Part shown: one piece after another, positions 5,548 through 61,932 of the stretch
Layout: each line of letters begins with the position of its first letter
Position numbering within the stretch: the stretch's first letter is position 1
Source: Chloroflexota bacterium
GTDB taxonomy: Bacteria > Chloroflexota > Anaerolineae > Anaerolineales > UBA11579
DNA: 64,000 nucleotides
Direction: 5' to 3'
Assembly: GCA_016191875.1 (NCBI GenBank)
Contig: JACPVG010000029.1
Span: 272,237-336,236, forward strand
Notes under the pieces: generated by a model
What the model was told of the DNA's origin: nothing
The model's input: only the letters and a program-made list of their open reading frames with translations
Databases searched by the model: none
Made by a program: the position numbers and the translations under genes

Positions 5548-5576
5548 TTGCAGGAAATTGAGAGACTGTGTATAAT
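5548..5576 (+). promoter_or_regulatory. Sigma70-like promoter: TTGCAG, 17-nt spacer, TATAAT
   Basis: -35 at 5548-5553 and -10 at 5571-5576, read directly. An exact TATAAT stands out in GC-rich DNA. An in-frame ATG lies at 5583, 7 nt after the -10. Confidence 0.4.
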
Positions 5577-8489: not shown

Positions 8490-9229
8490 GCAAAGCACTG
8501 ATCCTGCATGCGCCCGGCACCAACCGGGATGGGGACCTGGCTGAGGCCATTCGCCTGGCAGGTGGAGAAGCGGATATCGTGCCGCTCAGCCGCCTGCAAG
8601 CTGAGAAAACGGATTGGCTAGATTATGGATTGCTGGCACTGCCGGGCGGGTTTTCCTATGGCGACGCGCTCGGCGCAGGTAAACTATGGGCGCTTGCCCT
8701 GCAAACGTGGTTTGCCCACCAGATGCAGGCTTTTGTTGAGAGTGGCCGCCCCATCATCGGCATCTGCAACGGCTTTCAGGCGCTGGTAAGGGCGGGTTTC
8801 CTGCCGGGGGATAACCTGGCTGCCACCCTTGCCCACAACGAGTCGGCCCAATTCGAATGCCACTGGGTCACGCTTACTCCCAACTCTGCGAATCACTCAT
8901 TCTGGCTTCAGAGACTCGAGTCGCTGGTCTGTCCGGTGGCCCACGGCGAAGGGCGGTTCGTCACTGCGCACGGCGCTCGCTTGCCCGATGAGCTGGTTGC
9001 CCTGCGCTATCGTGCTGCGGATGGTCGCCTGGCCGATTCGCGCTATCCAGCAAACCCCAATGGCTCGCCCGGCGATGTCGCCGGTATTACCAACAGGGAT
9101 GGAAACATCCTTGGCCTGATGCCTCATCCCGAAAACCATATTCTTCCATACCAGCACCCCAACTGGACGCGCGGCGAGCAGGGGGGACTGGGCATCCAAT
9201 TGTTTAGGAATGGACTGCGGGCAGCATGA
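8486..9229 (+). CDS. purQ: Phosphoribosylformylglycinamidine synthase I (glutaminase subunit)
   Basis: APGTNRDGD, catalytic GICNGFQAL, MPHPE. 4-nt overlap with purL. Confidence 0.9.
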   Translation: MSKALILHAPGTNRDGDLAEAIRLAGGEADIVPLSRLQAEKTDWLDYGLLALPGGFSYGDALGAGKLWALALQTWFAHQMQAFVESGRPIIGICNGFQALVRAGFLPGDNLAATLAHNESAQFECHWVTLTPNSANHSFWLQRLESLVCPVAHGEGRFVTAHGARLPDELVALRYRAADGRLADSRYPANPNGSPGDVAGITNRDGNILGLMPHPENHILPYQHPNWTRGEQGGLGIQLFRNGLRAA

Positions 9230-9257
9230 TTGCCTGCACAACGGAGGAACGCAAAGA

Positions 9258-10220
9258 ATGACTCTATCCCAGGAGCGGCTTACCCCATTCGAAATTTCCG
9301 ACCTGCCTTTTAGCGGCAGGGACTCTGGCAAGGTGCGCGATATCTATGCCCTGCCGGATGATCGCTTGTTATTGGTTACCACAGACCGACTCTCGGCCTT
9401 TGACCACGTCCTTGGTGCAGCGGCATACAAAGGGCAAGTGCTCAATCAGTTGACAGCCTGGTGGCTGCGAGAGACGAGCGACATCGTCGCCAATCACATG
9501 ATATCTGCGCCCGACCCGAATGCCATGCTTGTCTATCAAGCAGAACCCTTCCTGCTGGAAGTCATCGTGCGCGGGTTCATTACCGGCGTCACCGAAACTG
9601 CCCTGTGGACGCGATACAGCATGGGGGAGCGCGAAATCTATGGTCAACGTTTTCCGGATGGCCTGAAGAAGAACGAAGCGCTTCCTGAACCGATCATCAC
9701 GCCTACCACCAAGGGCGGGCCGAGCGGCCACGACGAGCGTCTGACCCTCAAGCAGGTGGTCGCCGATGGGATCCTCGATGAGCCCACCTGGGCTGAAATC
9801 CGTAGCGCGGCTTTGGCGCTTTTCCGGCGCGGGCAGGAGGTCGCGCGCCGGGCGGGGCTGATTCTGGTCGACACCAAGTATGAATTCGGCCGCCTGTGCG
9901 ATGGCCGCGTGGCGCTGATCGACGAAGTGCATACCCCAGATTCTTCACGCTTCTGGGTCCTGGACACCTACGCGGCATGCCTGGAGGCCGGGCGGGAACC
10001 GGAGAACTACGACAAAGAATTCCTGCGGCTGGAATACGCCCGGCAGGGATACACGGGCGATGGTACGCCCCCGCCGATGCCGCCCGACCTCTGGCAGCGC
10101 GTGAGTTCCCGTTATGTCGAACTCTATGAACGGCTCACCGGGCTGGCCTTCGACCCCGGGCGCTATCCGGTCGAGGAGCGATTGCTGGAAAATCTGGCGC
10201 GGGAAGGGTTGCTGCCATGA
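9258..10220 (+). CDS. purC: SAICAR synthase
   Basis: GKVRDIY and LLLVTTDRLSAFD. ATG at 9258 is preceded by GGAGGA. The track ORF starts at 9210, inside purQ. Confidence 0.9.
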   Translation: MTLSQERLTPFEISDLPFSGRDSGKVRDIYALPDDRLLLVTTDRLSAFDHVLGAAAYKGQVLNQLTAWWLRETSDIVANHMISAPDPNAMLVYQAEPFLLEVIVRGFITGVTETALWTRYSMGEREIYGQRFPDGLKKNEALPEPIITPTTKGGPSGHDERLTLKQVVADGILDEPTWAEIRSAALALFRRGQEVARRAGLILVDTKYEFGRLCDGRVALIDEVHTPDSSRFWVLDTYAACLEAGREPENYDKEFLRLEYARQGYTGDGTPPPMPPDLWQRVSSRYVELYERLTGLAFDPGRYPVEERLLENLAREGLLP

Positions 10221-10699: not shown

Positions 10700-12120
10700 T
10701 GCCCGAACTGGATAAACCCCACGAAGAGTGCGGTGTATTCGGCGTCGCCGCCAACCACGCGCAGGCCGCCCGCCAGGCGTATTTTGGTATCTTTGCCCTA
10801 CAGCATCGCGGCCAGGAGGCCGCCGGGATAGCCGTCAGCGACGGGGCTCGGCTGCGACTCCACAAGGATGTTGGCCTGGTGTCGCAGGTGTTCGATGAAG
10901 GCATTATCGCGGGCCTTCAAGGCCACATGGCGATTGGGCATACGCGCTACAGCACCACTGGCTCCGCCACTGCCCCTAACGCCCAGCCTATGCTGCTGGA
11001 TACCCGCCATGGCCCGGTGGCCTTGGCGCACAACGGCAACCTGACCAATGCCGCCCAACTGCGCCAACGCCTGATGGAGCAGGGTGTTGGCTTCACTTCG
11101 ACCTCTGATACGCAGGTGATGATCATGATGCTGGCAGCGTCCGATGGGGGGAGTTGGATGGACCGCATCACCGCGACGATGGCAAAGTGGCAGGGGGCCT
11201 ATTCCATCGTCGTCCTCACGAACGAAGGGGTGTACGCCGCCCGCGACCCATGGGGGTTGCGACCTCTTACAGTTGGCAGCCTGCCCGGCGGAGGACACGC
11301 CGCGGCCTCTGAGACTGGCGCGCTGGAAACCATCGGCTGCGACGGCGTGCGCGAGGTCCATCCCGGTGAAGTGATCGCCCTGCACCGCGAGGCGCTTATC
11401 GTGCGCCAGGCGCTCGAACCCGATCTGCGACTGGCGCGCTGTACCTTCGAACACATCTATTTCTCCCGCCCGGACAGCGTGTGGGATGGGAGGGTGGTGC
11501 ACGATGTGCGCTACCGGCTCGGCCAGCAACTGGCCCGCGAAATGCCGGTGGAGGCCGATGTGGTCGTTCCGGTCCCCGATTCTTCCATCCCCAGCGGCCT
11601 GGGGTATTCTGCTGAGAGCGGTATTCGTTTTGACATCGGTCTGGTCAAGAATCGCTATATCGGGCGCACATTCATCCAGCCTTCCCACGAGATGCGCGTC
11701 CAGGGCGTAGCATTGAAATTCAACCCGATGCCGAGTGTGCTGGGCGGGCAGCGGGTGGTGCTCATCGACGATTCTATCGTGCGCGGCACCACCATGCGCC
11801 ATCTGGTGGGCATGCTGCGCGGGGCGGGCGCGGTCGAAGCGCATGTACGGGTCACCTGCCCGCCCATCCGCCATCCGTGCTTCATGGGCGTGGATATGTC
11901 GACGTACGACGAGCTCATCGCCCACAAGATGAGCGTCGAAGAGATGCGTATCTCGCTGGATGCCGATACGCTGCATTTCGTATCGCTTGAAGGCATGATG
12001 ACCGCTATCGGGCGGGAGCAAGGATACTGTAATGCCTGCTTCACCGGCCAGTATCCGTTCGAGATCCCTGAAACGGCGGGGAAGTTCAGCCTTGAGCCGA
12101 TGGGGGAGGGCCGGGTATGA
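10696..12120 (+). CDS. purF: Amidophosphoribosyltransferase
   Basis: Propeptide then the Cys nucleophile in ECGVFGV. PRTase loop VVLIDDSIVRGTT. C-terminal Cys residues fit the Fe-S type. Confidence 0.95.
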   Translation: MMPELDKPHEECGVFGVAANHAQAARQAYFGIFALQHRGQEAAGIAVSDGARLRLHKDVGLVSQVFDEGIIAGLQGHMAIGHTRYSTTGSATAPNAQPMLLDTRHGPVALAHNGNLTNAAQLRQRLMEQGVGFTSTSDTQVMIMMLAASDGGSWMDRITATMAKWQGAYSIVVLTNEGVYAARDPWGLRPLTVGSLPGGGHAAASETGALETIGCDGVREVHPGEVIALHREALIVRQALEPDLRLARCTFEHIYFSRPDSVWDGRVVHDVRYRLGQQLAREMPVEADVVVPVPDSSIPSGLGYSAESGIRFDIGLVKNRYIGRTFIQPSHEMRVQGVALKFNPMPSVLGGQRVVLIDDSIVRGTTMRHLVGMLRGAGAVEAHVRVTCPPIRHPCFMGVDMSTYDELIAHKMSVEEMRISLDADTLHFVSLEGMMTAIGREQGYCNACFTGQYPFEIPETAGKFSLEPMGEGRV

Positions 12121-14372
12121 ACGTTCTCCTTCTTGGTTCGGGCGGGCGCGAACATGCGATAGCCTGGAAACTGGCGCAATCCCCCCGGCTGACTCAGATA
12201 TATGCCGTGCCCGGGAATCCCGGCACCGCGCGCCTTGGTCGCAACCTGGATGGGGACATCCTGGATAGGCGGCGAGTCGCCAGCCTTGCGAAAAAGCATG
12301 GTATCGATCTGGTGGTGATCGGCCCGGAAGCGCCGCTGGCGGCCGGGTTGGCAGACGACCTGCGGGCAGCGGGTGTGTCGGTGTTCGGCCCCTCACGGGC
12401 CGGCGCCCAACTGGAAGCCTCAAAGGCCTTTGCCAAAGAATTCATGCGCGTTTCCAAAATCCCCACGGCATGCTACGCGATCTTTGAAGAATTCGAGGCC
12501 GCCAGGGCACATCTTGCGCAAGCCTCTTATCCATCCGTGATCAAGGCCTCCGGACTGGCGGCGGGTAAAGGGGTCTTCCTATCGGAAGACAGCGTGCAGG
12601 CGGAGCGGATACTGCAAGACCTGTTGGTGGAAAATCGACTGGGGGCGGCAGGCGCTCAGATCGTCATCGAAGAGAGGCTCAACGGCCCGGAACTTTCGGT
12701 GCTGGCATTCACAGATGGGCAGAGGCTGGCCATCATGCCGCCGGCGCGTGACCACAAACGCCTGCTGGATGGCGACCAAGGACCAAACACTGGCGGCATG
12801 GGGGCGCTGGCGCCCAGCCCGGACGCGACGCCGGAACTCATGCAGGAAATCCTCGAAACGATTCTGGCGCCGACTCTCGCCGGGCTGAACGAACGAGGTA
12901 TCGATTACCGGGGCGTGTTGTATGCCGGGCTGATCCTGACTGAAGATGGCCCCAAGGTGTTGGAATATAACTGCCGCTTTGGCGACCCCGAAGCGCAGGC
13001 CATCCTGCCATTGATGGAGTCCGACTTGCTTGAAGTGATGCTTGGCGCGGCGCAGGGTAACCTGCCGGATGTACGCTGGCGTGATGGGTACGCTGTTTGC
13101 GTGGTGCTGGCTTCGGGCGGCTACCCCGATACGTATCAAAGTGGGTTCCCCGTCTCCGGGCTGGAGGAGGATGCCGGGGCACTGGTCTTTCACGCCGGGA
13201 CCCGCGTGGTGGATGGGAGGATTGTGACTCATGGCGGGAGGGTGTTGGGCGTCACCGCGGTAGGCGGAGACCTGTTTGAGGCGGCGCACCGGGCTTATCG
13301 GGCCGCGGCGGCGGTTCGTTTTGAGGACATGCACTATCGGACCGATATCGGGACCGAGTTCTCTGCCTACCGGGCCGCCGGGGTGGACATTGACGCGGGG
13401 ACTCAGGCCGTCCGCCTAATGAAAACCAGCGTGGAGGCTACCCACGGCCCGGAGGTACTTGCCGGAGTGGGCGCGTTTGGCGGTCTCTATGCTGCCGCCG
13501 CGCTTCAACGGATGGCCGCTCCGGTGCTGGTTGCCTCTACCGATGGCGTTGGCACGAAAGTGTCGCTGGCGGCGCAATTCGGCATGGTCGCGGGCATCGG
13601 TTGCGATATCGTCAACCATTGCATTAACGACATCCTGGCGCAGGGAGCTCGCCCGCTGTTCTTCCTGGATTACATCGCTGTAGCCAGGCTGGATCCAAAC
13701 CAGGTCGCCGAAATCGTGGCGGGCATGGGCGTGGCTTGCCGGGAGGCGGGTTGCGCGCTGCTGGGCGGCGAAACCGCGGAAATGCCGGGGGTCTATCGCG
13801 AGGGCTACTTTGATGTGGCCGGGACACTCGTAGGCGTGGTGGAACGTGAACGCATCTTGCCGAGGGACGACATCCGAGTTGGCGACGTACTGATCGGGTT
13901 GCCTTCGTCCGGGCTGCACACCAACGGCTTTTCATTGGCGCGCAAGGCCTTTGACGGCGTCGACCAGCAACATGTCTACCCTGAACTAGGGCAACCGCTC
14001 GGCAGCGTATTGCTTGCTCCGCACCGCAGTTATCTACCCCTAGTTTGGCCCTCCCTGGAGCGCAGCCCGGAGTGGATCAAAGGACTTGCCCACATCACCG
14101 GCGGCGGTTTCCCGGATAACCTGCCGCGCATCCTCCCGGACGGCCTGACGGCGCGCGTCGACCTGGGCGCGTGGGAAGTTCCGCCCATCTTCCGACTCAT
14201 CCAACGTCTCGGCTGCGTCGCCGAGACAGAAATGTACCGTGTCTTCAATATGGGCATAGGCATGGTCGCGGTCGTGGCTCAGGAGCATGTCACACGATTG
14301 CTCGGCGACCTGGGCGAAGGCATAGCGATCGGCGAGGTTGTCCCTGGCAAAGAAGTGCGGCTTGAGACCTAA
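12117..14372 (+). CDS. purD-purM: Bifunctional GAR synthetase / AIR synthetase (PurD-PurM fusion)
   Basis: N-terminal MNVLLLGSGGREHAIAWKL and ATP-grasp (PurD) to about residue 425. Then DGVGTKV, GGETAEMPG and HITGGG (PurM). Single uninterrupted 751-aa ORF. Confidence 0.9.
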   Translation: MNVLLLGSGGREHAIAWKLAQSPRLTQIYAVPGNPGTARLGRNLDGDILDRRRVASLAKKHGIDLVVIGPEAPLAAGLADDLRAAGVSVFGPSRAGAQLEASKAFAKEFMRVSKIPTACYAIFEEFEAARAHLAQASYPSVIKASGLAAGKGVFLSEDSVQAERILQDLLVENRLGAAGAQIVIEERLNGPELSVLAFTDGQRLAIMPPARDHKRLLDGDQGPNTGGMGALAPSPDATPELMQEILETILAPTLAGLNERGIDYRGVLYAGLILTEDGPKVLEYNCRFGDPEAQAILPLMESDLLEVMLGAAQGNLPDVRWRDGYAVCVVLASGGYPDTYQSGFPVSGLEEDAGALVFHAGTRVVDGRIVTHGGRVLGVTAVGGDLFEAAHRAYRAAAAVRFEDMHYRTDIGTEFSAYRAAGVDIDAGTQAVRLMKTSVEATHGPEVLAGVGAFGGLYAAAALQRMAAPVLVASTDGVGTKVSLAAQFGMVAGIGCDIVNHCINDILAQGARPLFFLDYIAVARLDPNQVAEIVAGMGVACREAGCALLGGETAEMPGVYREGYFDVAGTLVGVVERERILPRDDIRVGDVLIGLPSSGLHTNGFSLARKAFDGVDQQHVYPELGQPLGSVLLAPHRSYLPLVWPSLERSPEWIKGLAHITGGGFPDNLPRILPDGLTARVDLGAWEVPPIFRLIQRLGCVAETEMYRVFNMGIGMVAVVAQEHVTRLLGDLGEGIAIGEVVPGKEVRLET

Positions 14373-16586: not shown

Positions 16587-17753
16587 CTATGAGGGTGTGG
16601 AGGGCATCACGCAATTTCGACCGGCCTGCTTTGCGGCATAGAGTTGCTCGTCCGCCCGTCCAATCAGGTGCTGCGGATCCGCTTCGCCCGACTGGTGCTG
16701 CGCCGCGCCGATGCTGACCGTGACTATCAGTTGTGGTTCCAGCAGCGCCTGCATGCACCCAGGCAGCCCGGCGCGCAGCCGCTCAGCAACTTGAAGCGCG
16801 GCGGCCAACGTCACCCCCGGCAGGATGGCCAGAAACTCTTCACCCCCATAGCGCCCCAGCGTCCCGCTGCCGCGCAGGTATTGGCGCATGCATGCAGCCA
16901 GGGTGAAGAGTGTTCGGTCGCCTGCCAGATGACCGAACGTGTCATTAATCCGCTTGAAATGGTCGCCATCAATGATCAGGATGCAGAGCGGCGAACCCTC
17001 GGCCTGACACTTGATCATCTCCAATTCAAGTCGCTCAAGTATCGATCTCCGGTTCGGAATCTGCGTGAGCGCATCCACCCGCGCCTGCCAGCCGAGCGTA
17101 CTGGTGAGCCGCTCCACGTGCATCAGAGCATAACTGAAGGTGAGGAGCGTGGTCACCACGAGCACGCCGGAGAGGGCCGCATCCTGATAGAAGCCGGTGG
17201 CAAAGAAATCCCGCTGGCTCGTTCCGGCCGGGGTGAAGTAGTAAACCGTGCGGGAAAAGAGGAGCGCACCCAAGCAGAAGAATCCCACGCCGGTGAGAAA
17301 GCGAACGAAATCATGGCGGTGTGGCCCGCCTCTCGAAAGCATCAGGCCGGTCAGCACTGAAAGGATTCCCAGCCAACCGGAGAGCAAAAGCGTACGCGCC
17401 CCGAAATCCGGAGCCAGAACGGTGAAGAATACCAGTCCGAACCCTGCCAGCAGGTTCGCGCTCCATAACGGCCTGCGTCTGGCTGGCTGATCAAGCAGCT
17501 GGCAGACGGCTTCGTAGTAGAGACTTATGCCGAGGATGCCCATAAGGTACGGGACCATGATCGAGATAATGTCGGGGATGATATCGCGCAGGCTGCCGAT
17601 GACGAAGCCAACCGCCAGCAGGATGTTCCCGGCCGCCCATGACCGAATTCCCTTCAAGGCGTTGCCGGTGGAGCGCGCCAACATGAGGAGGATGATTCCG
17701 TTGAGCAGGCTGATGAGACCGATGCTATAGACGATGGTTCGAATATCCAACAT
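16587..17753 (-). CDS. Diguanylate cyclase with N-terminal multi-TM sensor domain
   Basis: About 7 hydrophobic helices, then a GGDEF domain (RYGGEEF, DHFKRINDTFGH). Confidence 0.85.
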   Translation of the reverse strand: MLDIRTIVYSIGLISLLNGIILLMLARSTGNALKGIRSWAAGNILLAVGFVIGSLRDIIPDIISIMVPYLMGILGISLYYEAVCQLLDQPARRRPLWSANLLAGFGLVFFTVLAPDFGARTLLLSGWLGILSVLTGLMLSRGGPHRHDFVRFLTGVGFFCLGALLFSRTVYYFTPAGTSQRDFFATGFYQDAALSGVLVVTTLLTFSYALMHVERLTSTLGWQARVDALTQIPNRRSILERLELEMIKCQAEGSPLCILIIDGDHFKRINDTFGHLAGDRTLFTLAACMRQYLRGSGTLGRYGGEEFLAILPGVTLAAALQVAERLRAGLPGCMQALLEPQLIVTVSIGAAQHQSGEADPQHLIGRADEQLYAAKQAGRNCVMPSTPS

Positions 17754-17854: not shown

Positions 17855-19066
17855 CTAGGCGCTCAGTCCGAGCGCGCGCAGCACCATTCGCCAGGTACGC
17901 GCAACAGCCGTGAACGGCACTGCTGCAGCGGAATCCAGATCCCAGAGACGTTGCAGATGCCGGATGAAACTGAGCCCTCTATATTTGGGCATTCGCCGAG
18001 ACCACAGATATTGGTGGAGGAATTCTCCAACCACCGGCCAGGGCCGCCGAAACTGGAAATAAGCGTTGATGCGGGCGCTGAAGTGTGTCGGCGTCCCACG
18101 CAGGTTGGCAAGCAGGGAGTTAGGGATCTTAACCTCAAAACCGCGCGCCAGATAGACAAAAGCGCGAGCCAGTTGTGGGGCAATTTCCAGCGTTCCTGCA
18201 CGCGCCAGCAGCAAATCCCAATCGATGCGCGGCCCTGCCTGGCGCAGCACCCAGACCGCGTCCGCCACCCAACGCATCGGTGGGATCGGGTCCCAGCGAA
18301 AACCCTGTAGACAGACCGTGATCAGCAGATCAGTGGGATTAAGCGCGAGCGCAGAGAGGTCACCGAACTGGATGGGGTCCGCCTGTGACCAGACCTCCCG
18401 GTTGAAGTCTTCGAAGGGCTGTTTTGCGTAGAAGAACCAATGCAGGTCCAGTTCCAACCCCAATGGGCCGACCATGTTAACCGCCCGCCGTTCCAGCCAG
18501 AAATCAGGCGGGAGTTCGCCGTACTTGTAGCGCCACCCTGATCTGACCAACAACTCATAAGCGGCCTGGGCGCGCTCGGGCTGCACCCCAAAATCAAAAT
18601 CCAGCATGGGTCGCAGGCCATGATCCTGATAGATCTGCCGCGCCAGAGCCGAGCCTTTGAGCAAGCAAACCGGGATTCCTACTGCCTGAAATCTCCTGAG
18701 TTCATCGGCGGCATAGCGGAACAGCAGCTGGTTGCTGGCCCAGGTGCGGCGGTAAACACCTCGCAGTCGCTGGTGGTGGCGGGAGGGAATCTGATGCCGA
18801 ATCAGGTTATCGTATAACAACGGCAGCAGCCGAAATGAGCCCATGTCGATCGTTTCGATATCAACCTGACGTTCCCATTGGTGATAAGCTTGCGCAGCGC
18901 GTTCGCCGCCCAGCAGGGCGGCCTGTAACAACAGGTGCTGCTCCGGGGTGGGCCATGCCGTGGCTGGGGACTCTGGTTTTGCTCGGCGCGGGCGGCCTCC
19001 TGGCTCCATGCCGGCAATCCTAACATACCTTGCATTGCCTGCCGTTCTCCTGCCCCAGTCCAGCAC
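17855..19066 (-). CDS. Uncharacterised nucleotidyltransferase family protein (NTP_transf_5-like)
   Basis: The pattern LLKGSALARQIY...RPMLDFDFGV...ELDLHWFF matches my memory of PF14907. Start uncertain (alternative MEPGG at residue 20). Confidence 0.65.
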   Translation of the reverse strand: MLDWGRRTAGNARYVRIAGMEPGGRPRRAKPESPATAWPTPEQHLLLQAALLGGERAAQAYHQWERQVDIETIDMGSFRLLPLLYDNLIRHQIPSRHHQRLRGVYRRTWASNQLLFRYAADELRRFQAVGIPVCLLKGSALARQIYQDHGLRPMLDFDFGVQPERAQAAYELLVRSGWRYKYGELPPDFWLERRAVNMVGPLGLELDLHWFFYAKQPFEDFNREVWSQADPIQFGDLSALALNPTDLLITVCLQGFRWDPIPPMRWVADAVWVLRQAGPRIDWDLLLARAGTLEIAPQLARAFVYLARGFEVKIPNSLLANLRGTPTHFSARINAYFQFRRPWPVVGEFLHQYLWSRRMPKYRGLSFIRHLQRLWDLDSAAAVPFTAVARTWRMVLRALGLSA

Positions 19067-19121
19067 CCGCCGATGCGTCGGGCGAGGTGATCGGTCTGGG
19101 GAGCACTGCGAACCTGCATGT

Positions 19122-19127
19122 TATAAT
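19122..19127 (+). promoter_or_regulatory. Candidate -10 box (TATAAT) for the PqqD-kinase-GT operon
   Basis: Exact TATAAT 29 nt upstream of ATG 19156 in a 90-bp divergent intergenic region. GAGGAG SD follows. No good -35 seen. Confidence 0.3.
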
Positions 19128-19155
19128 CCCGGCGTCCCATCCGTGAGGAGTTTCG

Positions 19156-19599
19156 ATGTTCTACATCACCAATCGGCCAACCGTTGTCGCCGAAAGTTTT
19201 GGCGATGAGACCGTCATCATCAACATGGAGACTGGCGTGTACTATAGCCTGGAAGGCAGCGCCGGCGCAGCGTGGAGCCTGCTGGAACAAGGCTGCACCG
19301 CCGACGAACTGATCGACCAGCTGGTTGCGGCCTACGACATCGACCGCGCCGCACTTGGCAACGCCCTCCAGTCTTTTCTGGAAGAACTGCTGGTGGAGGG
19401 CCTTGCCCGCCAGGCCGCGTCCGGCGAAGCGCGTTCCGGTGCGCTGGCTGCCCCGCTGCCTCCGGCTGGTTCTGTCTATTCCCCGCCCGGAATCAAGAAA
19501 TATGAAGACCTGCAGGACCTGCTGCTCCTGGATCCCATTCACGAAGTCGACGAAGAAATGGGATGGCCCAACCTAAAACCCGAATCCCCTCAAGAATGA
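19156..19599 (+). CDS. PqqD-family protein (RiPP recognition element-like) with ~60-aa C-terminal extension
   Basis: ETVIINMETGVYYSLEGSAGAAWSLLEQGCTADELIDQLVAAYDID...FLEELLVEGL is a typical PqqD/RRE wHTH pattern. The tail ...SVYSPPGIKKYEDLQDLLLLDPIHEVDEEMGWPNLKPESPQE lies beyond the domain. Confidence 0.75.
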   Translation: MFYITNRPTVVAESFGDETVIINMETGVYYSLEGSAGAAWSLLEQGCTADELIDQLVAAYDIDRAALGNALQSFLEELLVEGLARQAASGEARSGALAAPLPPAGSVYSPPGIKKYEDLQDLLLLDPIHEVDEEMGWPNLKPESPQE

Positions 19600-20618
19600 C
19601 CATTGGCGGGGGGCTGGTCGCGCAAACCGAGCACTCGTTTATCGAAGCGCTTGGGGGCGCCGCGCCGAGCGTGAGGCAATTTCGGATTGCGGGATTCCAT
19701 ATCCGCCTGGAATTTGCCTCGCCCGTCCTGGTCCCTTTTCTCTACTCTGCTTTTCAACACCTCGCCGAACCACCTACGGCCCAGGCCGACCTTATCATCC
19801 ATATCTGGGACAGCCAATCCACCGGCGCTCCACCGCCGCCTTTGCCAACATTTGACCGCGATGAAGTCTGGATACTCAAAACTTCCCGACTGCAGGCCTA
19901 CACGGTCACCCCTGGGCGTTCGTTCTATTTACTGAACTTCGGGCAGGGCCGCGCCTATTATTGGCTGGCGGCTCCTGACCTGTGGCAGCCGGAAATCAGT
20001 TCTCCAATCATCCCCATCCTGCACTGGTGGCTGCTCGAGCAGGGATGGGCGTTCCTGCACGCCGCGGCTGTGGGCGTGCAGGAACTGGGCGCAGCCTTGC
20101 TGGTTGGGCGCGGCGGGCGCGGAAAATCCAGCACCGCGTTGGCCTGCCTGAAGTCGCATCTGCTCCTGCTAGGGGATGATTATTGCCTCGCCAGACAGGA
20201 TGGGAGCCTGCACAGCCTGTTTTCCAGCGCCAAGCTGGATGACGCTTCACTGGTGCGGTTCCCCTACTTAGAATCTGCGCGCAGTCCGTTTAGCGCGCCC
20301 GATTGGGAAAAGCATCTGTTTTTCCTGTATCCGGCATTTCGTGAGAACCTGAGCGCCGAACTTTCCGCCCGCTGCATCCTGTTGCCGAGCGTCACTTCAG
20401 GACCAGACACCTTCTTCCGGCCAGCCAGACCAGCCCAGGCACTGGCTGCTCTGGCGCCGAGCACCCTGTATCAGTTGCGATTTACGCGTGAAGCAGACCG
20501 CATGCTGGCCATGATGCGCTCTCTGACCGATAACCTGCCTTGCTTCACTCTCCACCTGGGTCAGGACCAGGAGAAGATCCCGCAAGCGATTGAGGAGGTC
20601 CTTCGCCAGTGCGCGTGA
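19596..20618 (+). CDS. HPr-kinase-related P-loop kinase
   Basis: FLHAAAVGVQELGAALLVGRGGRGKSSTALACL...LLGDDYC resembles the HprK C-terminal catalytic core. ATG 19596 makes an ATGA overlap with the PqqD stop (track start 19563). Confidence 0.7.
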   Translation: MTIGGGLVAQTEHSFIEALGGAAPSVRQFRIAGFHIRLEFASPVLVPFLYSAFQHLAEPPTAQADLIIHIWDSQSTGAPPPPLPTFDRDEVWILKTSRLQAYTVTPGRSFYLLNFGQGRAYYWLAAPDLWQPEISSPIIPILHWWLLEQGWAFLHAAAVGVQELGAALLVGRGGRGKSSTALACLKSHLLLLGDDYCLARQDGSLHSLFSSAKLDDASLVRFPYLESARSPFSAPDWEKHLFFLYPAFRENLSAELSARCILLPSVTSGPDTFFRPARPAQALAALAPSTLYQLRFTREADRMLAMMRSLTDNLPCFTLHLGQDQEKIPQAIEEVLRQCA

Positions 20619-21733
20619 TGCTCTGGAGTGAGTTCTATTTTCCCGATGTGGGCGGTTTGGAAGTATGGGCATATAACCTGATGCAGGCACTGCGGCCGCG
20701 CGGTTTTGAGTTCGTTGTGCTGGCGTCGCACGGCGGGAAATCAACTTCGGACGAAGATCTCATCGATGGCGTGCCGGTCTACCGGTTCCCGCTCCTTCAA
20801 GCGTTGGAGAAGAGGGACCTGATGGCTTTCAAGCGCGCCACGCAGCGAATCAAAGCCATCCACGCCGAATTCCAGCCGGATGTCATACACATCAACTGCC
20901 TTCCATGCAGTTTCCTCTATTTTCGCGCCGGGTTGGATAAACTTACTCCCACTTTCACCACCTTGCATGCGCTGCGGATCACTGGAGAGGGCATCAACCG
21001 GCTCATGAGTGAGCTGTTCCGCGCCTCGCACGCGATCACGGCGGTCTCGCGCTACATCCTGGAATCTGCATTGACAGTCGCTCCGGATATCCTCCCGCGT
21101 GCGGAAGTGGTTTATAACGGAAAGCCCCTGCCGTCGCTCGCTCCGGCTCCGCTCTCGCTGGAACCGCCCGTTTTTCTTCTTTATGGTCGTTGGGTGCACG
21201 ACAAAGGCTTCGACACGGGCATCGAAGCCTTTCGTTTGCTTGCGGCGGAATATCCACTGGCGCGGTTGTGGATCGCCGGTCATGGCCTCAAAGAAAGGGC
21301 CCTGAAAGAGCAGACGGCACAGTTGGGTCTGACTTCTCAGGTGGAGTTCCTGGGTGTGGTTGCTCCCGAGGAAATTCCCGGCCTGCTCAACCAGACTTCG
21401 GCCGTGCTGGTGCCTTCGCGCTGGGAGGAGCCCTTTGGCCTGGTGGCTTTGGAGGCTGGCCAGATGGCCCGGCCGGTCATTGCGTCTCGCGCTGGCGGCC
21501 TGCCTGAGGTAGTAGCGGATGGCCAGACCGGGCTGCTCGTGCCCAAGGAAGACCCTGCCGCCTTGGCCGGGGCGATGCGCTGGCTGCTCGACCATCCTGC
21601 GCGGGCCGTGGAAATGGGCCAAGCCGGACGCGCTCGCGCGGAGACGATGTTTGGCTTCGAACCCATGGTCGCTCGTTTCGAGGCGCTCTATCGCCAGACG
21701 GCGGCCATGCCGATCTTCAGTTCCTTGCCATGA
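20609..21733 (+). CDS. Glycosyltransferase family 4 (GT-B)
   Basis: EPFGLVALEAGQMARPVIASRAGGLPEVVADGQTGLLV (E-X7-E region). The likely start is ATG 20618 (TGATG overlap with the kinase stop). Confidence 0.85.
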   Translation: MRVMLWSEFYFPDVGGLEVWAYNLMQALRPRGFEFVVLASHGGKSTSDEDLIDGVPVYRFPLLQALEKRDLMAFKRATQRIKAIHAEFQPDVIHINCLPCSFLYFRAGLDKLTPTFTTLHALRITGEGINRLMSELFRASHAITAVSRYILESALTVAPDILPRAEVVYNGKPLPSLAPAPLSLEPPVFLLYGRWVHDKGFDTGIEAFRLLAAEYPLARLWIAGHGLKERALKEQTAQLGLTSQVEFLGVVAPEEIPGLLNQTSAVLVPSRWEEPFGLVALEAGQMARPVIASRAGGLPEVVADGQTGLLVPKEDPAALAGAMRWLLDHPARAVEMGQAGRARAETMFGFEPMVARFEALYRQTAAMPIFSSLP

Positions 21734-22632
21734 ATGACCAGCGCCGGCCCAACTTCTTTCTCATCGGCGCGGCGAAAGCCGGCACCACCTCGCTGTACTA
21801 CGCCTTGCGCCAGCATCCGCAGGTGTTCCTCAGTCCCATCAAAGAGCCAAGCTATTTCAGCGGCCAACCGATAATCAATGGCCCAACCTATCTGAACCGC
21901 GACCAAACCCATGTAAAAGACCGCGTTCGGTATGCTGCACTATTTGCCGAAAGCGATGGCTATCCCGTCGTCGGTGACTTTTCCACCTCGTACCTGGCGC
22001 TCTCGGATGTCGCCGCGCCGGCGATCGCGGCTGAGTGTCCCGATGCCAGATTGGCGGCTGTGCTGCGCGACCCGGCCGAGCGTGCCTTTTCGCATTTTGT
22101 CATGCATCGGCAACTGCTTATGGAGCCCGAAAAGCGCTTCGAGGCCGCGTTGGATGATGAACCGCGCCGAATTGCCAACAGCTGGGAATGGGCGCTCTGC
22201 TACAGCGCCACCAGCCAGTACGCCCGCCAGTTGACACCGTATTTGGAACGCTTCCCCCGCCGCCAAATCGGTATCTATGATTACGAGGATTGGAAGAACA
22301 ACCCCGAGACCTTCCTGCGAACATTATTTGAGTTTCTGGAAATCGACCCGGACTTCCAGCCAGATACCCGCAGGCGTTATCAACTCGGAGTTCTGCCGCG
22401 CTGGCGCGCCGCCGAGCAGTTCATCAAAGTCGCTAACCCGTTCACGTTTCCACTGCGGAGGATCCTGGCTGCCCGCACGCGGGATGCCCTTCGCCAGCGG
22501 GCGCTCCGGTGGAATTCCTATAAGCCAGAGATGAGTCCGGCTGAGCGGGCGCATATGATTGCGCTCTGCCGCGATGACATCCTGGAGCTTCAAGAACTGC
22601 TTGGCCGAGACTACAGCACCTGGTTAGAATAG
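21730..22632 (+). CDS. Sulfotransferase (PAPS-dependent type)
   Basis: 5'-PSB loop FLIGAAKAGTTSL. 3'-PB-like LRDPAERAFSHF. ATGA overlap with the GT4 gene. Confidence 0.85.
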   Translation: MNDQRRPNFFLIGAAKAGTTSLYYALRQHPQVFLSPIKEPSYFSGQPIINGPTYLNRDQTHVKDRVRYAALFAESDGYPVVGDFSTSYLALSDVAAPAIAAECPDARLAAVLRDPAERAFSHFVMHRQLLMEPEKRFEAALDDEPRRIANSWEWALCYSATSQYARQLTPYLERFPRRQIGIYDYEDWKNNPETFLRTLFEFLEIDPDFQPDTRRRYQLGVLPRWRAAEQFIKVANPFTFPLRRILAARTRDALRQRALRWNSYKPEMSPAERAHMIALCRDDILELQELLGRDYSTWLE

Positions 22633-22636
22633 CCGT

Positions 22637-23320
22637 ATGAGCGAGTTTCCGCTGATCAGCGTTGTCATGCCTGCTTTCAACGCCGCCGCATTCATTGGCG
22701 ACGCCATTCAAAGTGCACTGGCGCAAACCTATCTTCGGCTGGAGGTCATCGTGGTGGATGACGGCTCCACGGATGGCACTGCCCAGATTGTGCGGGACTT
22801 TGCAGAGCGCGTGGCCTTGATCCAGAAATCCCACCAGGGCATAGCCAAGACCCGCAATGCGGCCATCGCCGCCGCGGGCGGGGAAATGCTTGCTTTTCTG
22901 GATGCGGACGATCTGTGGCTGCCCGAAAAGCTGGAGCGGCAGACTTCTTACCTTTTCTCCAACCCGCAGCTCGACATGGTGTTTTCTGCCGTCCGCCAGT
23001 TCGCTGATCCGCGGGGCACGGTGCGTCTTGACCCGCGTTACGAGACAATGCAAGGCAAGTTGGCTAGCACCATGCTAATCCGAAGGGGCAGTTTTGAGAG
23101 AGCAGGCTGGTTTGACCCGCAGCATCTGGCCTCTGAGTTCGTGGCCTGGGTCCTGCAAGCGGAGGCGAAAGGTCTGACCAGTGACGTACTTCCTGAAGTG
23201 CTCACCCTAAGACGGTTGCATGATAACAATAACGGCCTGCGCCAGCGAGACCTTCAAAGCAGGGAGTATTTGGCTTTGCTCAAGCGGCGGCTGGATCAAC
23301 GACGACGCGACGGGGATTGA
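22637..23320 (+). CDS. Glycosyltransferase family 2 (GT-A)
   Basis: ISVVMPAFNAAAFIGDAIQSALAQTY, VIVVDDGSTDGT, FLDADD. Confidence 0.9.
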   Translation: MSEFPLISVVMPAFNAAAFIGDAIQSALAQTYLRLEVIVVDDGSTDGTAQIVRDFAERVALIQKSHQGIAKTRNAAIAAAGGEMLAFLDADDLWLPEKLERQTSYLFSNPQLDMVFSAVRQFADPRGTVRLDPRYETMQGKLASTMLIRRGSFERAGWFDPQHLASEFVAWVLQAEAKGLTSDVLPEVLTLRRLHDNNNGLRQRDLQSREYLALLKRRLDQRRRDGD

Positions 23321-23361: not shown

Positions 23362-25137
23362 TCAGCGCCAACCTCCTTGCCGCCAGCGCATCACGCGCGG
23401 CCTGGCCCAGATGCCCAACGCCCCAGCCAGACTGCCCAAAACGAATGCATAGATCAGATCCCGATGCTGTGGCGACGGATACACGCTCAGGATGCGTTGC
23501 TTGACCCACTGAACCACAGTCGGCTTGCGAATCAAGTAATCGGTGATGATTTCGACCTGCACCGGGCTCAGGTCCGGGTTGGGCATCAACGAGTTGGGGT
23601 TGTCGAAGCCCGTCAGTGTCAGGTGTTCGCGTATCCACACGCGCAGGCGGTCATCGCCCTGCGCCGCGCGTACTGCCCGACGCGCCTCCCGCTCCTCGGG
23701 AGAGTTGTCCCCAGTCTGATCAAGCGCGTCCAGAGTCTCCAGGTAGGCTGCGGAATTCAGCCGGGCGGCAAGTCGGTCGTATAAATAATAAGGGTCCAAT
23801 GACGGGCCGATATTACCTTGTTGGCCGTAGAGCGTGTGGCATCCCAGGCAGCCCAGGTGACCAAGTAGTGCGGGCACATTGGTATCCACCACTGTGCCAA
23901 TCACCGTGGGATGGGCGCGATCCGGTTCGTAGCTGAGACGGTACAACCCGCTTCCGGTTTCGTTTTCAGGCAGAAAGGGTGAAAAATACAGACCGTCCGG
24001 ACCCAAAGCCAAACCCACCAGACCTTGGCTCTCGCCGGCATAATGCAGGAGGTAGTCGGGCGCGGCGGCTGCCCGACCGGTAGACAGATCCACTTGCAGG
24101 CGCAGAATGCCGGGCTTTACGTTGAAACCTTCGCTGCCTTCCCAGTAGGAGTTGCCGACCGAGGCAAGGTAGAACTGGCCGCGATACTCCGGCGGAAGGG
24201 TGGTGTAGTCAGGCGGAACGAATTCCAGACCGGAAGGGCCGTTGGCGGGGAAGAATGCAAAGATAGGATTCACGCCTATGCTATTGTCTGTGCCGTCGTA
24301 CCAGTAGTTGCCGCCTGCAACGATCTCTATGAAGCGGTCCATTCGAAGGCCATTATCGCCCACAAACATCCGCCCGCCGGGCAAAATCTCCAACGCAAAG
24401 GGGTTGCGCAGACCGCTGGCCCAGACGAACTCGCTGTAATCGAACGGGTCATCGTTGAGCGGGTAGGGGTTGCCGGGAGCGGGGTTGAAGTCGAGATCGA
24501 AGCGCAGGATCTTTCCCAAAAACGCCTGGAGGTCGCTTGAGCGGGCGCCTTGGGTGCCATCCCCCACCGAGACATATAGCGCGCCGTCGTAGATCTCGCA
24601 GGCGCCAATTTGGTGGTTGCCGAACACGCGGATGGTATTGAAAAAATCCGCGGCCAGCATATCTGCGCCAAATGAAGCGAGGCCAAAGACTCCTGGCTGA
24701 CTGCGAAAGCGGGCCATCCGGTTGACGCGAGTTTTGCCCTTGGTGAATTCACTCCACGTCACAAAAACATAGCCCTCTTCTGGAGCGAGGCACAGCCCGC
24801 CCAGGCCATATTCGCCCACGAATTCCGTACCGCCCAGAGAGGTGAACTCGTCGGCGAAAATATGCACCTGCCCGTCGTTGGTGACAACCTTGATAACTCC
24901 GTTCAGTTCGGCCACAAACAGCCGCACATCGCCTGGCGCGGGACCGGGTTCGGGAACGAAGGCGATGGCTGTCACAAGATGGAACCCGTCCACCACTCGC
25001 TCAAGCGCGAAACCCGGAGGCACGGCCCACTCCAGAGCCGGATCGGTGGGGGTGGATATTTCGGTGGGGGCGGGCGAGGAGCAGGCAGCGCCCAGGACTG
25101 TCAGCATAACGAAGAGGAACCAAGCGCGGACACTCAT
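23362..25137 (-). CDS. Lipoprotein: beta-propeller (glucose/sorbosone dehydrogenase-like) domain fused to a c-type cytochrome domain and a C-terminal TM anchor
   Basis: The internal ATG at 25137 gives MSVRAWFLFVMLTVLGAACSS (lipobox). Propeller-like repeats (ALYVSVGDGT, GLRNPFAL). Heme motif GCLGCH with downstream SLMP. Terminal hydrophobic helix. The track N-terminal extension to 25455 is rejected. Confidence 0.55.
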   Translation of the reverse strand: MSVRAWFLFVMLTVLGAACSSPAPTEISTPTDPALEWAVPPGFALERVVDGFHLVTAIAFVPEPGPAPGDVRLFVAELNGVIKVVTNDGQVHIFADEFTSLGGTEFVGEYGLGGLCLAPEEGYVFVTWSEFTKGKTRVNRMARFRSQPGVFGLASFGADMLAADFFNTIRVFGNHQIGACEIYDGALYVSVGDGTQGARSSDLQAFLGKILRFDLDFNPAPGNPYPLNDDPFDYSEFVWASGLRNPFALEILPGGRMFVGDNGLRMDRFIEIVAGGNYWYDGTDNSIGVNPIFAFFPANGPSGLEFVPPDYTTLPPEYRGQFYLASVGNSYWEGSEGFNVKPGILRLQVDLSTGRAAAAPDYLLHYAGESQGLVGLALGPDGLYFSPFLPENETGSGLYRLSYEPDRAHPTVIGTVVDTNVPALLGHLGCLGCHTLYGQQGNIGPSLDPYYLYDRLAARLNSAAYLETLDALDQTGDNSPEEREARRAVRAAQGDDRLRVWIREHLTLTGFDNPNSLMPNPDLSPVQVEIITDYLIRKPTVVQWVKQRILSVYPSPQHRDLIYAFVLGSLAGALGIWARPRVMRWRQGGWR

Positions 25138-25343
25138 GGCCGAATTATAGGCCGGAAAGACCGTTGGTGGCCGAACCCAGGCCCATGGCATCTGTAGGTC
25201 TGGAAAGCCGTGGGGCCGGATCTGCAATAGATTGATGACATGATAGGGACAAATGCCCCGATTGTGTGGGGGTGAGATGTCCGGCTTTTGGGCGATTCGC
25301 TGTGCGGAGCCAAAATAGCCCTTACTCCGAGCGGATTTCTCTG

Positions 25344-25349
25344 TATAAT
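25344..25349 (+). promoter_or_regulatory. Candidate -10 box (TATAAT) upstream of the thiolase gene, followed by a 7-bp hairpin (25363-25384)
   Basis: Exact TATAAT. TGTCCCT / AGGGACA stem with an 8-nt loop ending 4 nt before ATG 25389. The only SD-like purines (AAGGGA) lie in the 3' arm. Confidence 0.3.
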
Positions 25350-25388
25350 GAAATTGCAAGCCTGTCCCTCCATCCCAAGGGACAAAGC

Positions 25389-58623: not shown

Positions 58624-58719
58624 TCGCAAAATCATCCGAGGGTGTGGCGCTTTCTCCTGGCCCTGGCTATGTCCCGCGGACAACTTCCTTTTCAAGGCCA
58701 TAAGTCTTCTTTGCCCTTC

Positions 58720-61700: not shown

Positions 61701-61932
61701 CTTCCAAAGGGCTGCCGATCGTCCCAGCCAGGCGCTGGAGCTTTTCAGCCGCGCGGCCGAGATTGATCCTTATGAAGACCAGTGGCGGCTGGGGGTCCTG
61801 CGCAGCTATGTGGGCCTGAACCAGCGCCAGGCGGCCCGCAATTACTTTCAGGCGTACAAGCAGTTGTTGGCCGACGAACTGGGCGTTGAGCCCGGCGGCG
61901 AACTGACCGCGTTTTCGCGTACACTCGACTGA
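58720..61932 (+). CDS. Large STAND-class regulator: MalT-like NTPase + TPR region + C-terminal OmpR-type wHTH/BTAD (SARP) module
   Basis: Walker A VCAPAGYGKTTLLQ and Walker B LLVLDDYHLV (MalT-like). TPR-like repeats in the middle. C-terminal RIEARGLGRAEVRVNG...WRVRNALG...LYTGDFLPE...YEDQWRLGVLRSY...AYKQLLADELGVEP is a SARP signature. Start at ATG 58720 (track 58642). Confidence 0.8.
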   Translation: MPIKLSRTQIPTQRARILKRVRLLDLLHEHVHRRLIFVCAPAGYGKTTLLQSFIADVEMVVCWYQIGPEDDHLSLFLEYLIRVIENSYPRFRECFPEIGPAKPDLTPDAAAAQFINAVIECVDNYTLLVLDDYHLVSQQPAIVQFMESLLAALPEQLRLVVSSRSVYGIPTAHLFIHQEIAILAAEDLKFKSQEVRDLSRHSFHRALSQIEVDAITRTTDGWPLATMLVLQDEIATTQPLRLMSAQEQVFEYFRDELLGQLDAELVRFLTVTSLVDEFTLEQAGYLLNKSDIQGYVRQLFDRNLFIAQRDNQERDSYSYHQLFREFLLEQFTLLERGTQQRYHARAAEWFERTGATAAAIQHWFAAGAVEIAAELINRSAKWAYTSGRQDLLDEWHRRLASVPQTLHLAPDLLLNRAKSLINRGQHEEALPLLDVAEPVFVEKQDYENLCNLLVTRGMLQRFMGEYQVGLDLALKAKELAGKHDVSVYHALQAERLEGITNHYLGHIDLALERLSSSAAGLRTLLQGESGDRTVHELIAALTDIGYICITNGRIQQAESAYLEALQLSAQVHGNRGDQAVCGNNAAYLHYIKGDYARAWELYEQALQAARESGWRAFLVDVLNGQGDLLRDIGEQDRAAEKYAEAQAQAGSEPAGTSSMDTHLGLAELERLQANYAQAQWHVREAARLGKSSLETRPLRVQNAAIYLAMGHPELVLEILKPEHENTYETFQPDQKAAAAYFLLAIAQQRTDQAQDDIRASLKRALEITARLGYDAFFVGWLREFGAEVRPLEAGMNSPQLRSLLARADEPLVVESILGRPKQETAEVIPSRIEARGLGRAEVRVNGERLTASSWQSLGARSLFFYILEHQPVGKDQIALTFWPDFSPGKVNSNFHATLWRVRNALGNPQAIHFDEQGYALHPAHSLYYDVAEFEQAIQGLGGLDKGSAGWRNLAEQAINLYTGDFLPEIDVEWVLERARQLRQKFLVTLTDLADFQRAADRPSQALELFSRAAEIDPYEDQWRLGVLRSYVGLNQRQAARNYFQAYKQLLADELGVEPGGELTAFSRTLD

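Follow-up and report, generated by a model that had tools for sequence, protein, structure and literature searches.

In a 64,000-nucleotide stretch of contig JACPVG010000029.1 from the metagenome-assembled genome of a Chloroflexota bacterium (hereafter the window), a PqqD-like protein carries a leader-like peptide at its own C-terminus. The protein is encoded in a six-gene cassette, together with a P-loop kinase, an NTP_transf_5-family protein, two glycosyltransferases (GT2 and GT4) and a sulfotransferase. Sequence comparison, covariation and an AlphaFold2 (AF2) model place the tail motif in the canonical leader cleft of the protein's own RRE (recognition element of RiPPs, the ribosomally synthesised and post-translationally modified peptides). 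RREs are a common handle by which RiPP pathways are found and engineered, and the working rule is that an RRE has a precursor nearby. The family described here, with at least 1222 sequence clusters and 467 species-level genomes, breaks this rule. The leader lies in the RRE protein, no precursor gene accompanies it, and the enzymes encoded alongside are a kinase, an NTP-transferase and glycosyltransferases.

The cassette had been picked out in a first-pass annotation made from the letters of the DNA. All six of the genes it described are present, with their overlaps and the divergent NTP_transf_5 gene. Pfam and NCBIfam searches agree with its domain calls, and for the kinase the call is carried by motifs of the HprK/PEPCK superfamily (PEPCK, phosphoenolpyruvate carboxykinase), with model scores below their cut-offs. 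The cassette consists of the following genes (aa, amino acids; PAPS, 3'-phosphoadenosine-5'-phosphosulfate):

17855-19009, minus strand: NTP_transf_5-family protein of nucleotidyltransferase fold, 384 aa (PF14907, E = 2e-37), divergent from the operon
19156-19599, plus strand: PqqD-like protein, 147 aa (PF05402, 56 bits against a cut-off of 23 bits)
19596-20618, plus strand: P-loop kinase of the HprK/PEPCK superfamily, 340 aa (motifs HAAAVG...GRGGRGKSS...GDDY; HprK model scores below cut-off)
20609/20618-21733, plus strand: GT4 glycosyltransferase (PF00534, E = 1.6e-37; PF13439, E = 3e-18; EX7E motif readable)
21730-22632, plus strand: PAPS-type sulfotransferase (PF13469 and PF00685, E ~1e-11 to 1e-12)
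22637-23320, plus strand: small soluble GT2 glycosyltransferase, 227 aa (PF00535, E = 8e-33; DDGSTD and DAD motifs readable)

The tethered tail and the cleft of its own RRE

The PqqD-like protein is built from these parts (pLDDT, predicted local distance difference test):

19156-19413, plus strand: RRE, a PqqD-like winged-helix domain, aa 1-86 of 147 (PF05402, 56 bits; AF2 pLDDT > 90)
19414-19476, plus strand: variable linker rich in Ala, Pro, Gly and Ser, aa 87-107, poorly conserved
19477-19503, plus strand: leader-like motif YSPPGIKKY, consensus [FYW]xxPx[LIV]xK[YF], aa 108-116
19507-19569, plus strand: acidic segment DLQDLLLLDPIHEVDEEMGWP, aa 118-138, near-invariant and better conserved than any other stretch of the protein
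19570-19599, plus strand: short variable C-terminal end NLKPESPQE and stop codon, overlapping the kinase start (ATGA); 2-15 residues in the family

A discrete RRE has about 90 residues, and the homologues of the PqqD-like protein are all 115-190 aa long. The N-terminal domain most resembles the B1 proteins of lasso peptide pathways. In phmmer searches against the Protein Data Bank (PDB) it matched TbiB1 (7.6e-12), PbaB1 (2.6e-7) and LppB (0.02). Its best Foldseek match was 5v1v, the complex of TbiB1 with its leader (TM 0.91), and its best NCBIfam match was lasso_PqqD_Bac, with 50 bits against a cut-off of 80 bits. The first-pass annotation had named failure of this gene against RRE models among the grounds for giving up its view; PF05402 recognises it, and the closest structure is a lasso B1-leader complex. 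In the phmmer alignment, the LppB cleft residues Asp70, Phe74, Tyr60, Leu32 and Leu83 align position for position with the present RRE.

Behind the linker, the homologues share the tail [FYW]xxPx[LIV]xK[YF]xDMQDLLLLDPIHEVDExGWP, and 2-15 variable residues complete the protein. Conservation is higher in the tail than in the RRE domain, and no other part of the protein is as well conserved. The leader-like motif stands at a fixed distance of 18 residues ahead of DPIH in about 78 of 92 homologues. The motif [Y/W]xxPx[L/V/I] is the one by which lasso B1 proteins and LppB bind their leaders (PMC13381572). The AF2 model of the PqqD-like protein has a mean pLDDT of 83.8, with residues 101-120 at 83-89, and DSSP assigns a strand to residues 112-116, that is, to Pro+1 to Pro+5. 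LppA pairs with LppB in the same Pro+1 to Pro+5 register in the crystal structure (PMC13381572).

Covariation was computed as mutual information with average product correction (MI-APC) over 189 sequences. The top three pairs of the whole protein (70-108, 33-114 and 81-115) all link the RRE to the tail, with a chance probability of ~5e-4 for all three falling in this class. The pair 81-115 combines Glu with Lys or Arg, and the pair 33-114 is charge-complementary. Asp70 occurs only together with Tyr or Trp at position 108 (30 of 30) and never with Phe108 (0 of 121), a pattern that extends over at least 14 sequence clusters. Position 70 aligns with Asp70 of LppB in the phmmer alignment, and this residue hydrogen-bonds the leader Tyr in the LppB crystal structure (PMC13381572). 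Across the 189 homologues the linker is 14-40 residues long, so even at its minimum of 14 it would be long enough to loop back to the cleft. Taken together, the likeness to lasso B1 proteins and LppB, the modelled strand, the top covarying pairs and the linker length indicate that the motif occupies the leader cleft of its own RRE.

To see how the tail is distributed, we ran an exhaustive HMMER search with the 45-residue tail alone as query. The motif was found in 1222 cluster representatives, and in nearly all of the 150 matches listed of these it lies C-terminally, behind an N-terminal part of RRE length. Within each locus it occurs exactly once, always inside the PqqD-like gene. Two of about 25 short matches were checked (P0217 and P0261, 44-48 aa); these apparent stand-alone tail peptides are genes cut by contig ends. 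A further candidate, the 534-aa protein P0213 with an apparent eight copies of the motif, is an unrelated low-complexity repeat (KGVYSPIPFGSRRWERDEGSVLTDPVWESEVGQGW) and thus a false positive. The first-pass annotation had suspected that the PqqD tail matters, and this is borne out by a tail that is both the most conserved part of the protein and the bearer of a leader-type motif predicted to bind the RRE.

We found no paper describing a fused RRE-leader family. According to a 2025 survey, 21% of PF05402 proteins exceed the length of a discrete RRE and carry no other annotation (PMC12710340). The present RRE-tail family makes up part of this set.

A conserved cassette related to known tailoring modules

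The kinase belongs to the HprK/P-PEPCK P-loop superfamily, as judged from its P-loop, its DD site, the upstream His and the modelled fold; HprK/P itself shares this P-loop superfamily with PEPCK. Among 95 sequences, H155, G171, G174, G176-K177-S178, D194-D195 and K213 are invariant. The AF2 model (pLDDT 93.6) has ATP-dependent PEPCKs as its best PDB folds (E = 1e-10, TMq 0.5-0.58) and resembles them over both domains. The profile scores are low: Hpr_kinase_C, HprK_rel_A and HprK_rel_B gave 16-18 bits, all under their cut-offs, and HPr-rel-A and HPr-rel-B (TIGR04352 and TIGR04355) gave 18.2 and 17.4 bits against a cut-off of 200. The membership in the HPr-rel TIGRFAM systems that the first-pass annotation had entertained is therefore not upheld. 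The kinase family has more than 640 matches; homologues, as distinct from the window's own protein, carry Pfam PF27840 (ScmC), often marked 'faint'.

In the NTP_transf_5 protein of the window, for which the gene call on the source contig also starts at 19009, the G138-S139 motif and the carboxylates D156, D158 and D207 are intact, and the KGS and DFD motifs and the third Asp can be read directly. The sulfotransferase likewise shows its 5'-phosphosulfate-binding (KAGTTS) and 3'-phosphate-binding (RDPAERAFS) motifs. About one third of the cassette NTP_transf_5 proteins (71 aligned) lack at least one of the three catalytic carboxylates, and several loci encode two paralogues, one of which may be non-catalytic. 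Natural fusions join the kinase to a GT2 in a Gemmatimonadaceae genome (L025, 2897-4732) and in an Eisenbacteria genome (L085, 2761-4545), while a Deltaproteobacterium (L006, 11084-13282) has three GT2s in a single 732-aa protein. These fusions suggest that the enzymes are functionally tied together.

We scanned 185,579 species genomes, one per species, and found 467 loci in more than 15 phyla. About 29 of the 80 loci listed among these belong to Cyanobacteria, including cultured Anabaena, Dolichospermum, Scytonema, Chamaesiphon and Laspinema. Chloroflexota, Acidobacteriota, Bacteroidota/Ignavibacteriota, Desulfobacterota, Gemmatimonadota, Proteobacteria, Bacillota, Verrucomicrobiota, Patescibacteria and others are represented as well. 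Neighbours were counted within ~9 kb of the kinase in 79 of the 80 listed loci:

GT2: 77/79 loci, 1-4 paralogues
PqqD-like protein: 71/79 loci
NTP_transf_5: 66/79 loci
MsbA-like ABC exporter: 30-40 of ~80 loci
GT4: 25/79 loci
Sulfotransferase of either type: ~15 loci (homologues of the window type in 6/79, another sulfotransferase-like cluster in 9)

The PqqD-tail gene adjoins the kinase gene in most of the 79 loci and usually overlaps it. The conserved core is thus the PqqD-tail protein, the kinase, one or more GT2s and NTP_transf_5, whereas the GT4 and the sulfotransferase, which had initially been taken for core members, are lineage-specific accessories. The other recurrent neighbours, an epimerase, a short-chain dehydrogenase/reductase (SDR), a GlcNAc 2-epimerase, an FkbM methyltransferase, an ABC-2 permease and an SGL lactonase, are all sugar-related.

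Three Anaerolineae relatives (L002-L004) have the same six genes in the same order, with kinases 56-63% identical to that of the window, so the arrangement is not due to chance. In all three, two GSDH genes follow the cassette and the upstream flanks differ. More distant homologues (35-42% identity; Deltaproteobacteria, Acidobacteria, Planctomycetes) show a simpler core of PqqD-like protein, kinase, one to three small GT2s and NTP_transf_5.

Genes that would complete a classical pathway were sought in 64 kb of the source genome and in 20 kb around each related locus. No Asn-synthetase-like cyclase was detected in the window or in ~90 related loci when all six frames were searched by phmmer with AsnB of E. 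coli; the best match (E = 0.057) is PurF. Pfam scans of essentially all plausible window genes gave no PF00733/Asn_synthase, transglutaminase-like protease, signal peptidase or other peptidase. Nor did Pfam detect a transglutaminase-like B2 leader peptidase in the open reading frames (ORFs) of the window or in the Pfam-annotated relatives. Among the recurrent neighbour clusters of the 80 loci there is no peptidase or cyclase family, and an SpI-type peptidase is missing from these clusters and from the window alike. An MsbA-like ABC exporter was found in the window neither by Pfam nor by phmmer with a family representative.

The intergenic gaps of the window hold no plausible precursor. The divergent gap (19010-19155) offers just two ORFs, one of 28 aa and one of 38 aa that starts with TTG; both lack a leader-like motif. 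No conserved small ORF or second motif copy is present in 84 loci. Gaps of 600-700 bp upstream of the PqqD-like gene in L009 and L012 were considered as precursor sites and rejected: an HNH-like ORF and tandem repeats fill them, and the two gaps share no conserved element. In L012 (a Pyrinomonadaceae contig, 8900-9400) the 630-bp gap consists of ~50-nt tandem repeats that translate as repeated SLRSNPGLKLANAFGV, and no precursor gene is found there. Phmmer, Pfam and inspection of the gap ORFs thus agree with the earlier statement that cyclase, protease and room for a separate precursor are all missing.

The closest known system is the tailoring module of the linear polyphosphorylated peptides (LPPs) and paeninodins of Bacillota, of which the present cassettes are evolutionary relatives. 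LPP clusters encode LppA/B/K/S/D/N (Popov et al., Nat Commun 2026, PMC13381572), and LppK polyphosphorylates Ser3 of the core peptide (PMC13381572). Shared features are a discrete PqqD-type RRE for a YxxPx[V/L] leader, an HprK-like P-loop kinase and an 'uncharacterised NTP transferase' (PMC13381572), and this trio is present and adjacent in the window, where sequence comparison was made with LppB only. An MsbA-like exporter is often found in both, the lasso cyclase is absent, and polysaccharide genes are frequently near. The differences are considerable. In the window the leader-like motif is fused to the RRE, whereas LPPs have a separate precursor of 35-200 aa with the motif YxxPxVLxHQxIxFETxxS and an acceptor Ser at core position 3, where the present family has an invariant Asp. 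LPP clusters include an SpI (SipW-like) leader peptidase that is lacking here, and small GT2 arrays are core to the present family. Similarity of the RRE to LppB is weak (E = 0.02), and in sequence the kinase is of another family (PF27840/ScmC-like). While LPPs and paeninodins have been described as restricted to Bacillota (PMC13381572), the present family spans more than 15 phyla.

Paeninodin and pseudomycoidin are tailored by the kinases PadeK and PsmK and the NTP-transferase PsmN (PMC8498205, PMC6993621). In pseudomycoidin, the DD pair D158/D159 of PsmK is needed to (poly)phosphorylate Ser, and the DxD residues D134/D136 of PsmN are needed to add hexose to the phosphate (PMC6993621). At the level of motifs, the DD of the window kinase corresponds to D158/D159 and the DxD of NTP_transf_5 to D134/D136. 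The RRE is of the lasso B1 type, and sulfotransferases co-occur in lasso clusters (PMC8498205). Of the parts that make up a lasso cluster, however, the cassette has only the PqqD-like RRE (B1); the C protein (cyclase), the B2 protease and a separate precursor are lacking, as is the C-terminal Ser. The earlier view of a stand-alone tailoring system related to the HprK-like/NTP-transferase module of lasso clusters is thus upheld, as the cassette is conserved and is not itself a lasso cluster.

The HPr-rel-A/B and SynChlorMet systems (the latter with ScmC/ScmD and the radical-SAM proteins ScmE/F) also place a PqqD-family protein beside an HprK-related P-loop protein. Membership in either is ruled out on scores: the NCBIfam models reach 17-25 bits where 100-200 are required (ScmD gives the PqqD-like protein a weak 25 bits, cut-off 100), and no radical-SAM/SPASM genes are present; none adjoins the cassette. 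To our knowledge, a conserved tail is not a feature of these systems. Outside nature, a recognition peptide has been tethered to the protein that recognises it in the engineered fusions LynD-F, MicD-F and leader-LctM. In borosins, the precursor with its core peptide is fused to its catalytic methyltransferase. These cases are either artificial or join a core to an enzyme, whereas the present fusion is natural and links a leader-like peptide to a stand-alone RRE. In LynD-F and MicD-F, the fused leader makes the RiPP enzymes constitutively active and frees them from the need for a leader on the substrate (PMC9052802).

Acceptor, mechanism and alternative readings

The acidic segment behind the leader-like motif is the part of the tail that would be left free. 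D126, P127, H129, W137 and P138 are invariant in 92 of 92 homologues, DPIH is found in all 92 proteins and GWP in 91. AF2 gives residues 121-147 a pLDDT of ~55, and the segment shows no strong covariation with the RRE. The first-pass annotation had proposed tailoring of a C-terminal Ser, as in lasso peptides. This does not hold: the last residue is Ser in 6 of 92 proteins, and 31 of the 92 have no Ser or Thr after GWP, counts that rule out a C-terminal Ser, or any conserved Ser/Thr, as the acceptor. The acceptor would thus be either a positionally loose tail hydroxyl or the invariant Asp126 or His129. Position 117 is Thr or Ser in 61% and Asp or Glu in 17%, which is suggestive, if not universal. 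Asp126 lies at aromatic+18, and the presented segment begins in the register that in LppA holds both the cleavage site and the phospho-Ser (PMC13381572).

We tentatively favour, at something short of an even chance, the reading that the PqqD-like protein presents its own tethered tail to the co-encoded enzymes as a substrate or carrier arm. The RRE would bind the tethered leader and leave the invariant DLLLLDPIHEVDExGWP segment free, to be held out, most likely to the kinase and the transferases, so that the protein would be chaperone and acceptor (or carrier arm) at once. The kinase would add a phosphate. NTP_transf_5 and the GT2 and GT4 enzymes may then build a glycan on it, by analogy with PsmK and PsmN on pseudomycoidin, and the sulfotransferase may cap this glycan. 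With the cleft filled by the tethered leader, a second leader would not easily be recruited. This, the lack of a separate precursor near 84 loci and the LppA register are what favour a presented tail. A more specific form of this reading, in which the protein is the first natural RRE-precursor fusion, strikes us as unlikely. Here, Asp126 or His129 would be phosphorylated (as acyl-phosphate or phosphoramidate), priming a phospho-linked sulfated glycan that is kept or exported. Hundreds of bacterial genera, many cyanobacteria among them, would then possess a 'glycan carrier protein' pathway or make a conserved peptide-derived product.

Several observations weigh against a presented tail. AF2 and MI draw on the same kind of alignment signal, so the evidence for docking is not fully independent, and both are compatible with docking between two copies as well as in cis. 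No Ser, Thr or Tyr of the tail is conserved, and 8 of 189 tails lack any Ser or Thr from position 116 to the end, so that Ser phosphorylation of the tail cannot be the universal chemistry. We know of no precedent for phosphorylation of Asp or His by this kinase fold. Natural RiPP cores are usually variable, and this segment is invariant. Finally, no cassette contains a peptidase, yet ~40-50% encode an MsbA-like exporter, a combination less suited to a 15-kDa protein than to a glycoconjugate that is small or lipid-linked.

Many of the same observations suit a tethered leader that acts as a permanent 'on' switch. In this scenario, which is quite possible although we would not bet on it, the RRE with its tethered leader is an adaptor that is not consumed, and the kinase, NTP_transf_5 and the glycosyltransferases are activated when the invariant segment docks on them. 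Their substrate would carry no leader and would not be recruited through the RRE; an envelope glycan, a lipid-linked sugar or a surface protein is the most plausible candidate. The evidence for self-docking serves this scenario equally, the missing conserved hydroxyl acceptor is expected under it, and the invariance of the segment is typical of a docking motif. The lack of a peptidase, the frequent MsbA-like exporters, the uniformly sugar-related accessory genes and the cassettes that lie inside a lipopolysaccharide (LPS)-core or polysaccharide locus point the same way, as does the whole-chain fold of the kinase, which is nearest to PEPCK, an enzyme acting on a small molecule. LynD-F and MicD-F would be its artificial counterpart (PMC9052802). 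However, a natural precedent is not known, several cassettes, that of the window included, lie outside glycan loci, and HprK-like kinases of known function in such a context phosphorylate peptides (PMC8498205, PMC13381572). An activator also gives no reason why selection should maintain an entire RRE and leader, complete with compensatory cleft changes.

A classical RiPP pathway whose precursor, and perhaps peptidase and exporter, are encoded elsewhere appears improbable. In such a pathway the tail would stabilise or auto-inhibit the RRE until a leader displaces it; LppB is insoluble without leader, and a placeholder in cis could help (PMC13381572). The stretch searched, 64 kb of the genome and 20 kb per related locus, leaves room for a distant gene. 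Still, RiPP precursors are almost always clustered with their RRE, and the 84 loci yielded neither a conserved small ORF nor a second motif copy. The C-terminal place of the motif behind an RRE-length part in nearly all of the 150 listed matches of 1222 speaks against a free leader as well, and a tethered competitor would beat a leader arriving in trans. We give slightly less credence still to the view that the PqqD-like ORF is incidental to an ordinary operon for polysaccharide or LPS decoration. Glycosyltransferases and the sulfotransferase do dominate the gene set, and some homologous cassettes are embedded in glycan loci, that of L006 among LPS-core genes and that of L009 among polysaccharide genes. 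But the window cassette and several others lie outside glycan loci; the first-pass annotation was to be abandoned if such cassettes always sat in polysaccharide loci and the PqqD-like ORF failed RRE models. Moreover, the PqqD-tail gene stands beside the kinase in most of the 79 loci and in many phyla, its tail is the most conserved sequence of the cassette, and the window has no initiating phosphoglycosyltransferase, flippase, polymerase, Wzx/Wzy or Wzm/Wzt. A decayed lasso cluster that has lost cyclase, protease and precursor, which the first-pass annotation had itself raised as a possible refutation, is hardly conceivable and in practice refuted by the conserved cyclase-less loci. It would account for an RRE most similar to lasso B1 proteins and for kinase, NTP-transferase and sulfotransferase types that occur in lasso clusters (PMC8498205). 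Yet the cyclase-less architecture recurs with intact catalytic motifs across the family (467 genomes), the close relatives are fully syntenic, and neither an AsnB-like ORF nor a lasso protease was found beside any of the ~90 loci.

If the tail is the substrate, the cassette would represent a new, self-contained logic of post-translational phosphoglycosylation. If it is an activator, nature would have preceded the engineered leader-fusion trick, and RiPP-type enzymes would have taken on substrates other than RiPPs, possibly envelope glycans. In both cases, the LPP/paeninodin tailoring module reaches far beyond Bacillota, and the family explains the 'orphan' PqqD-like proteins of more than 110 aa met by genome-mining tools. 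The contacts Asp70/Tyr108 and Glu81/Lys115 offer a direct test of the proposed binding, and the system is present in cultured cyanobacteria.

The operon and its surroundings

The PqqD-like, kinase, GT4, sulfotransferase and GT2 genes form one tightly coupled operon. The junctions can be read directly in the DNA: ATGA joins the PqqD-like and kinase genes (19596-19599), TGATG the kinase and GT4 genes (20616-20620; the GT4 ATG at 20618 gives the overlap) and ATGA the GT4 and sulfotransferase genes (21730-21733), while a 4-nt spacer precedes the GT2 gene at 22637. The kinase is 100% identical to the protein with locus tag HYZ26_11015. Two elements lie 5' of the operon:

19119-19127, plus strand: extended -10 box TGTTATAAT, invariant in the window, L002 and L004
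19147-19150, plus strand: Shine-Dalgarno sequence GGAG, invariant in the window, L002 and L004

The intergenic DNA around both has diverged between the window, L002 and L004, and TGTTATAAT is a putative promoter element; a simple sigma-70 scan did not flag the site. Rfam gave no regulatory RNA match in the region at E <= 0.1.

One gene is convergent to the cassette:

23362-25359, minus strand: GSDH-type sugar dehydrogenase dependent on pyrroloquinoline quinone (PQQ), with a lipobox and a C-terminal CxxCH haem motif (PF07995, E = 6e-17)

GSDH holds the same position in L002-L004 despite their different upstream flanks and is absent from most distant loci; it is possibly a lineage-specific neighbour outside the core. 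GSDH pairs are found in L002 (12209-15903) and L004 (6916-10457). Genes of the gluconolactonase-like SGL type recur in nine distant loci, and in L025 the gene next after the cassette encodes a PQQ quinohaemoprotein dehydrogenase. These neighbours may point to a link with extracellular sugar oxidation. GGDEF proteins lie next to the cassette in two cases, as a membrane diguanylate cyclase in the window (16587-17753, minus strand) and as a PAS-GGDEF-EAL protein in L025 (6884-8737), which hints at a connection to cyclic di-GMP or biofilms from these two cases only.

The G+C content of the window is even, at ~60%, and outside the cassette its genes are housekeeping ones: a two-component system, pur genes, GGDEF, GSDH, thiolase, hyp genes, NiFe hydrogenase, carbon monoxide dehydrogenase/acetyl-CoA synthase (CODH/ACS) and methylenetetrahydrofolate reductase (MTHFR). 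Two purine genes are fused, namely PurS-PurL (5568-8489; PurS, FGAR-AT linker and AIRS, 973 aa) and PurD-PurM (12117-14372; GARS and AIRS, 751 aa). Downstream of the cassette, 28091-62000 encodes hypE/D/C/F/B and a NiFe hydrogenase with Hdr/Mvh-like subunits, as well as CODH/ACS with a corrinoid protein and RACo, a pterin-binding methyltransferase and MTHFR, which amount to a Wood-Ljungdahl gene set. A large BTAD/AAA/TPR regulator is encoded at 58642-61932.

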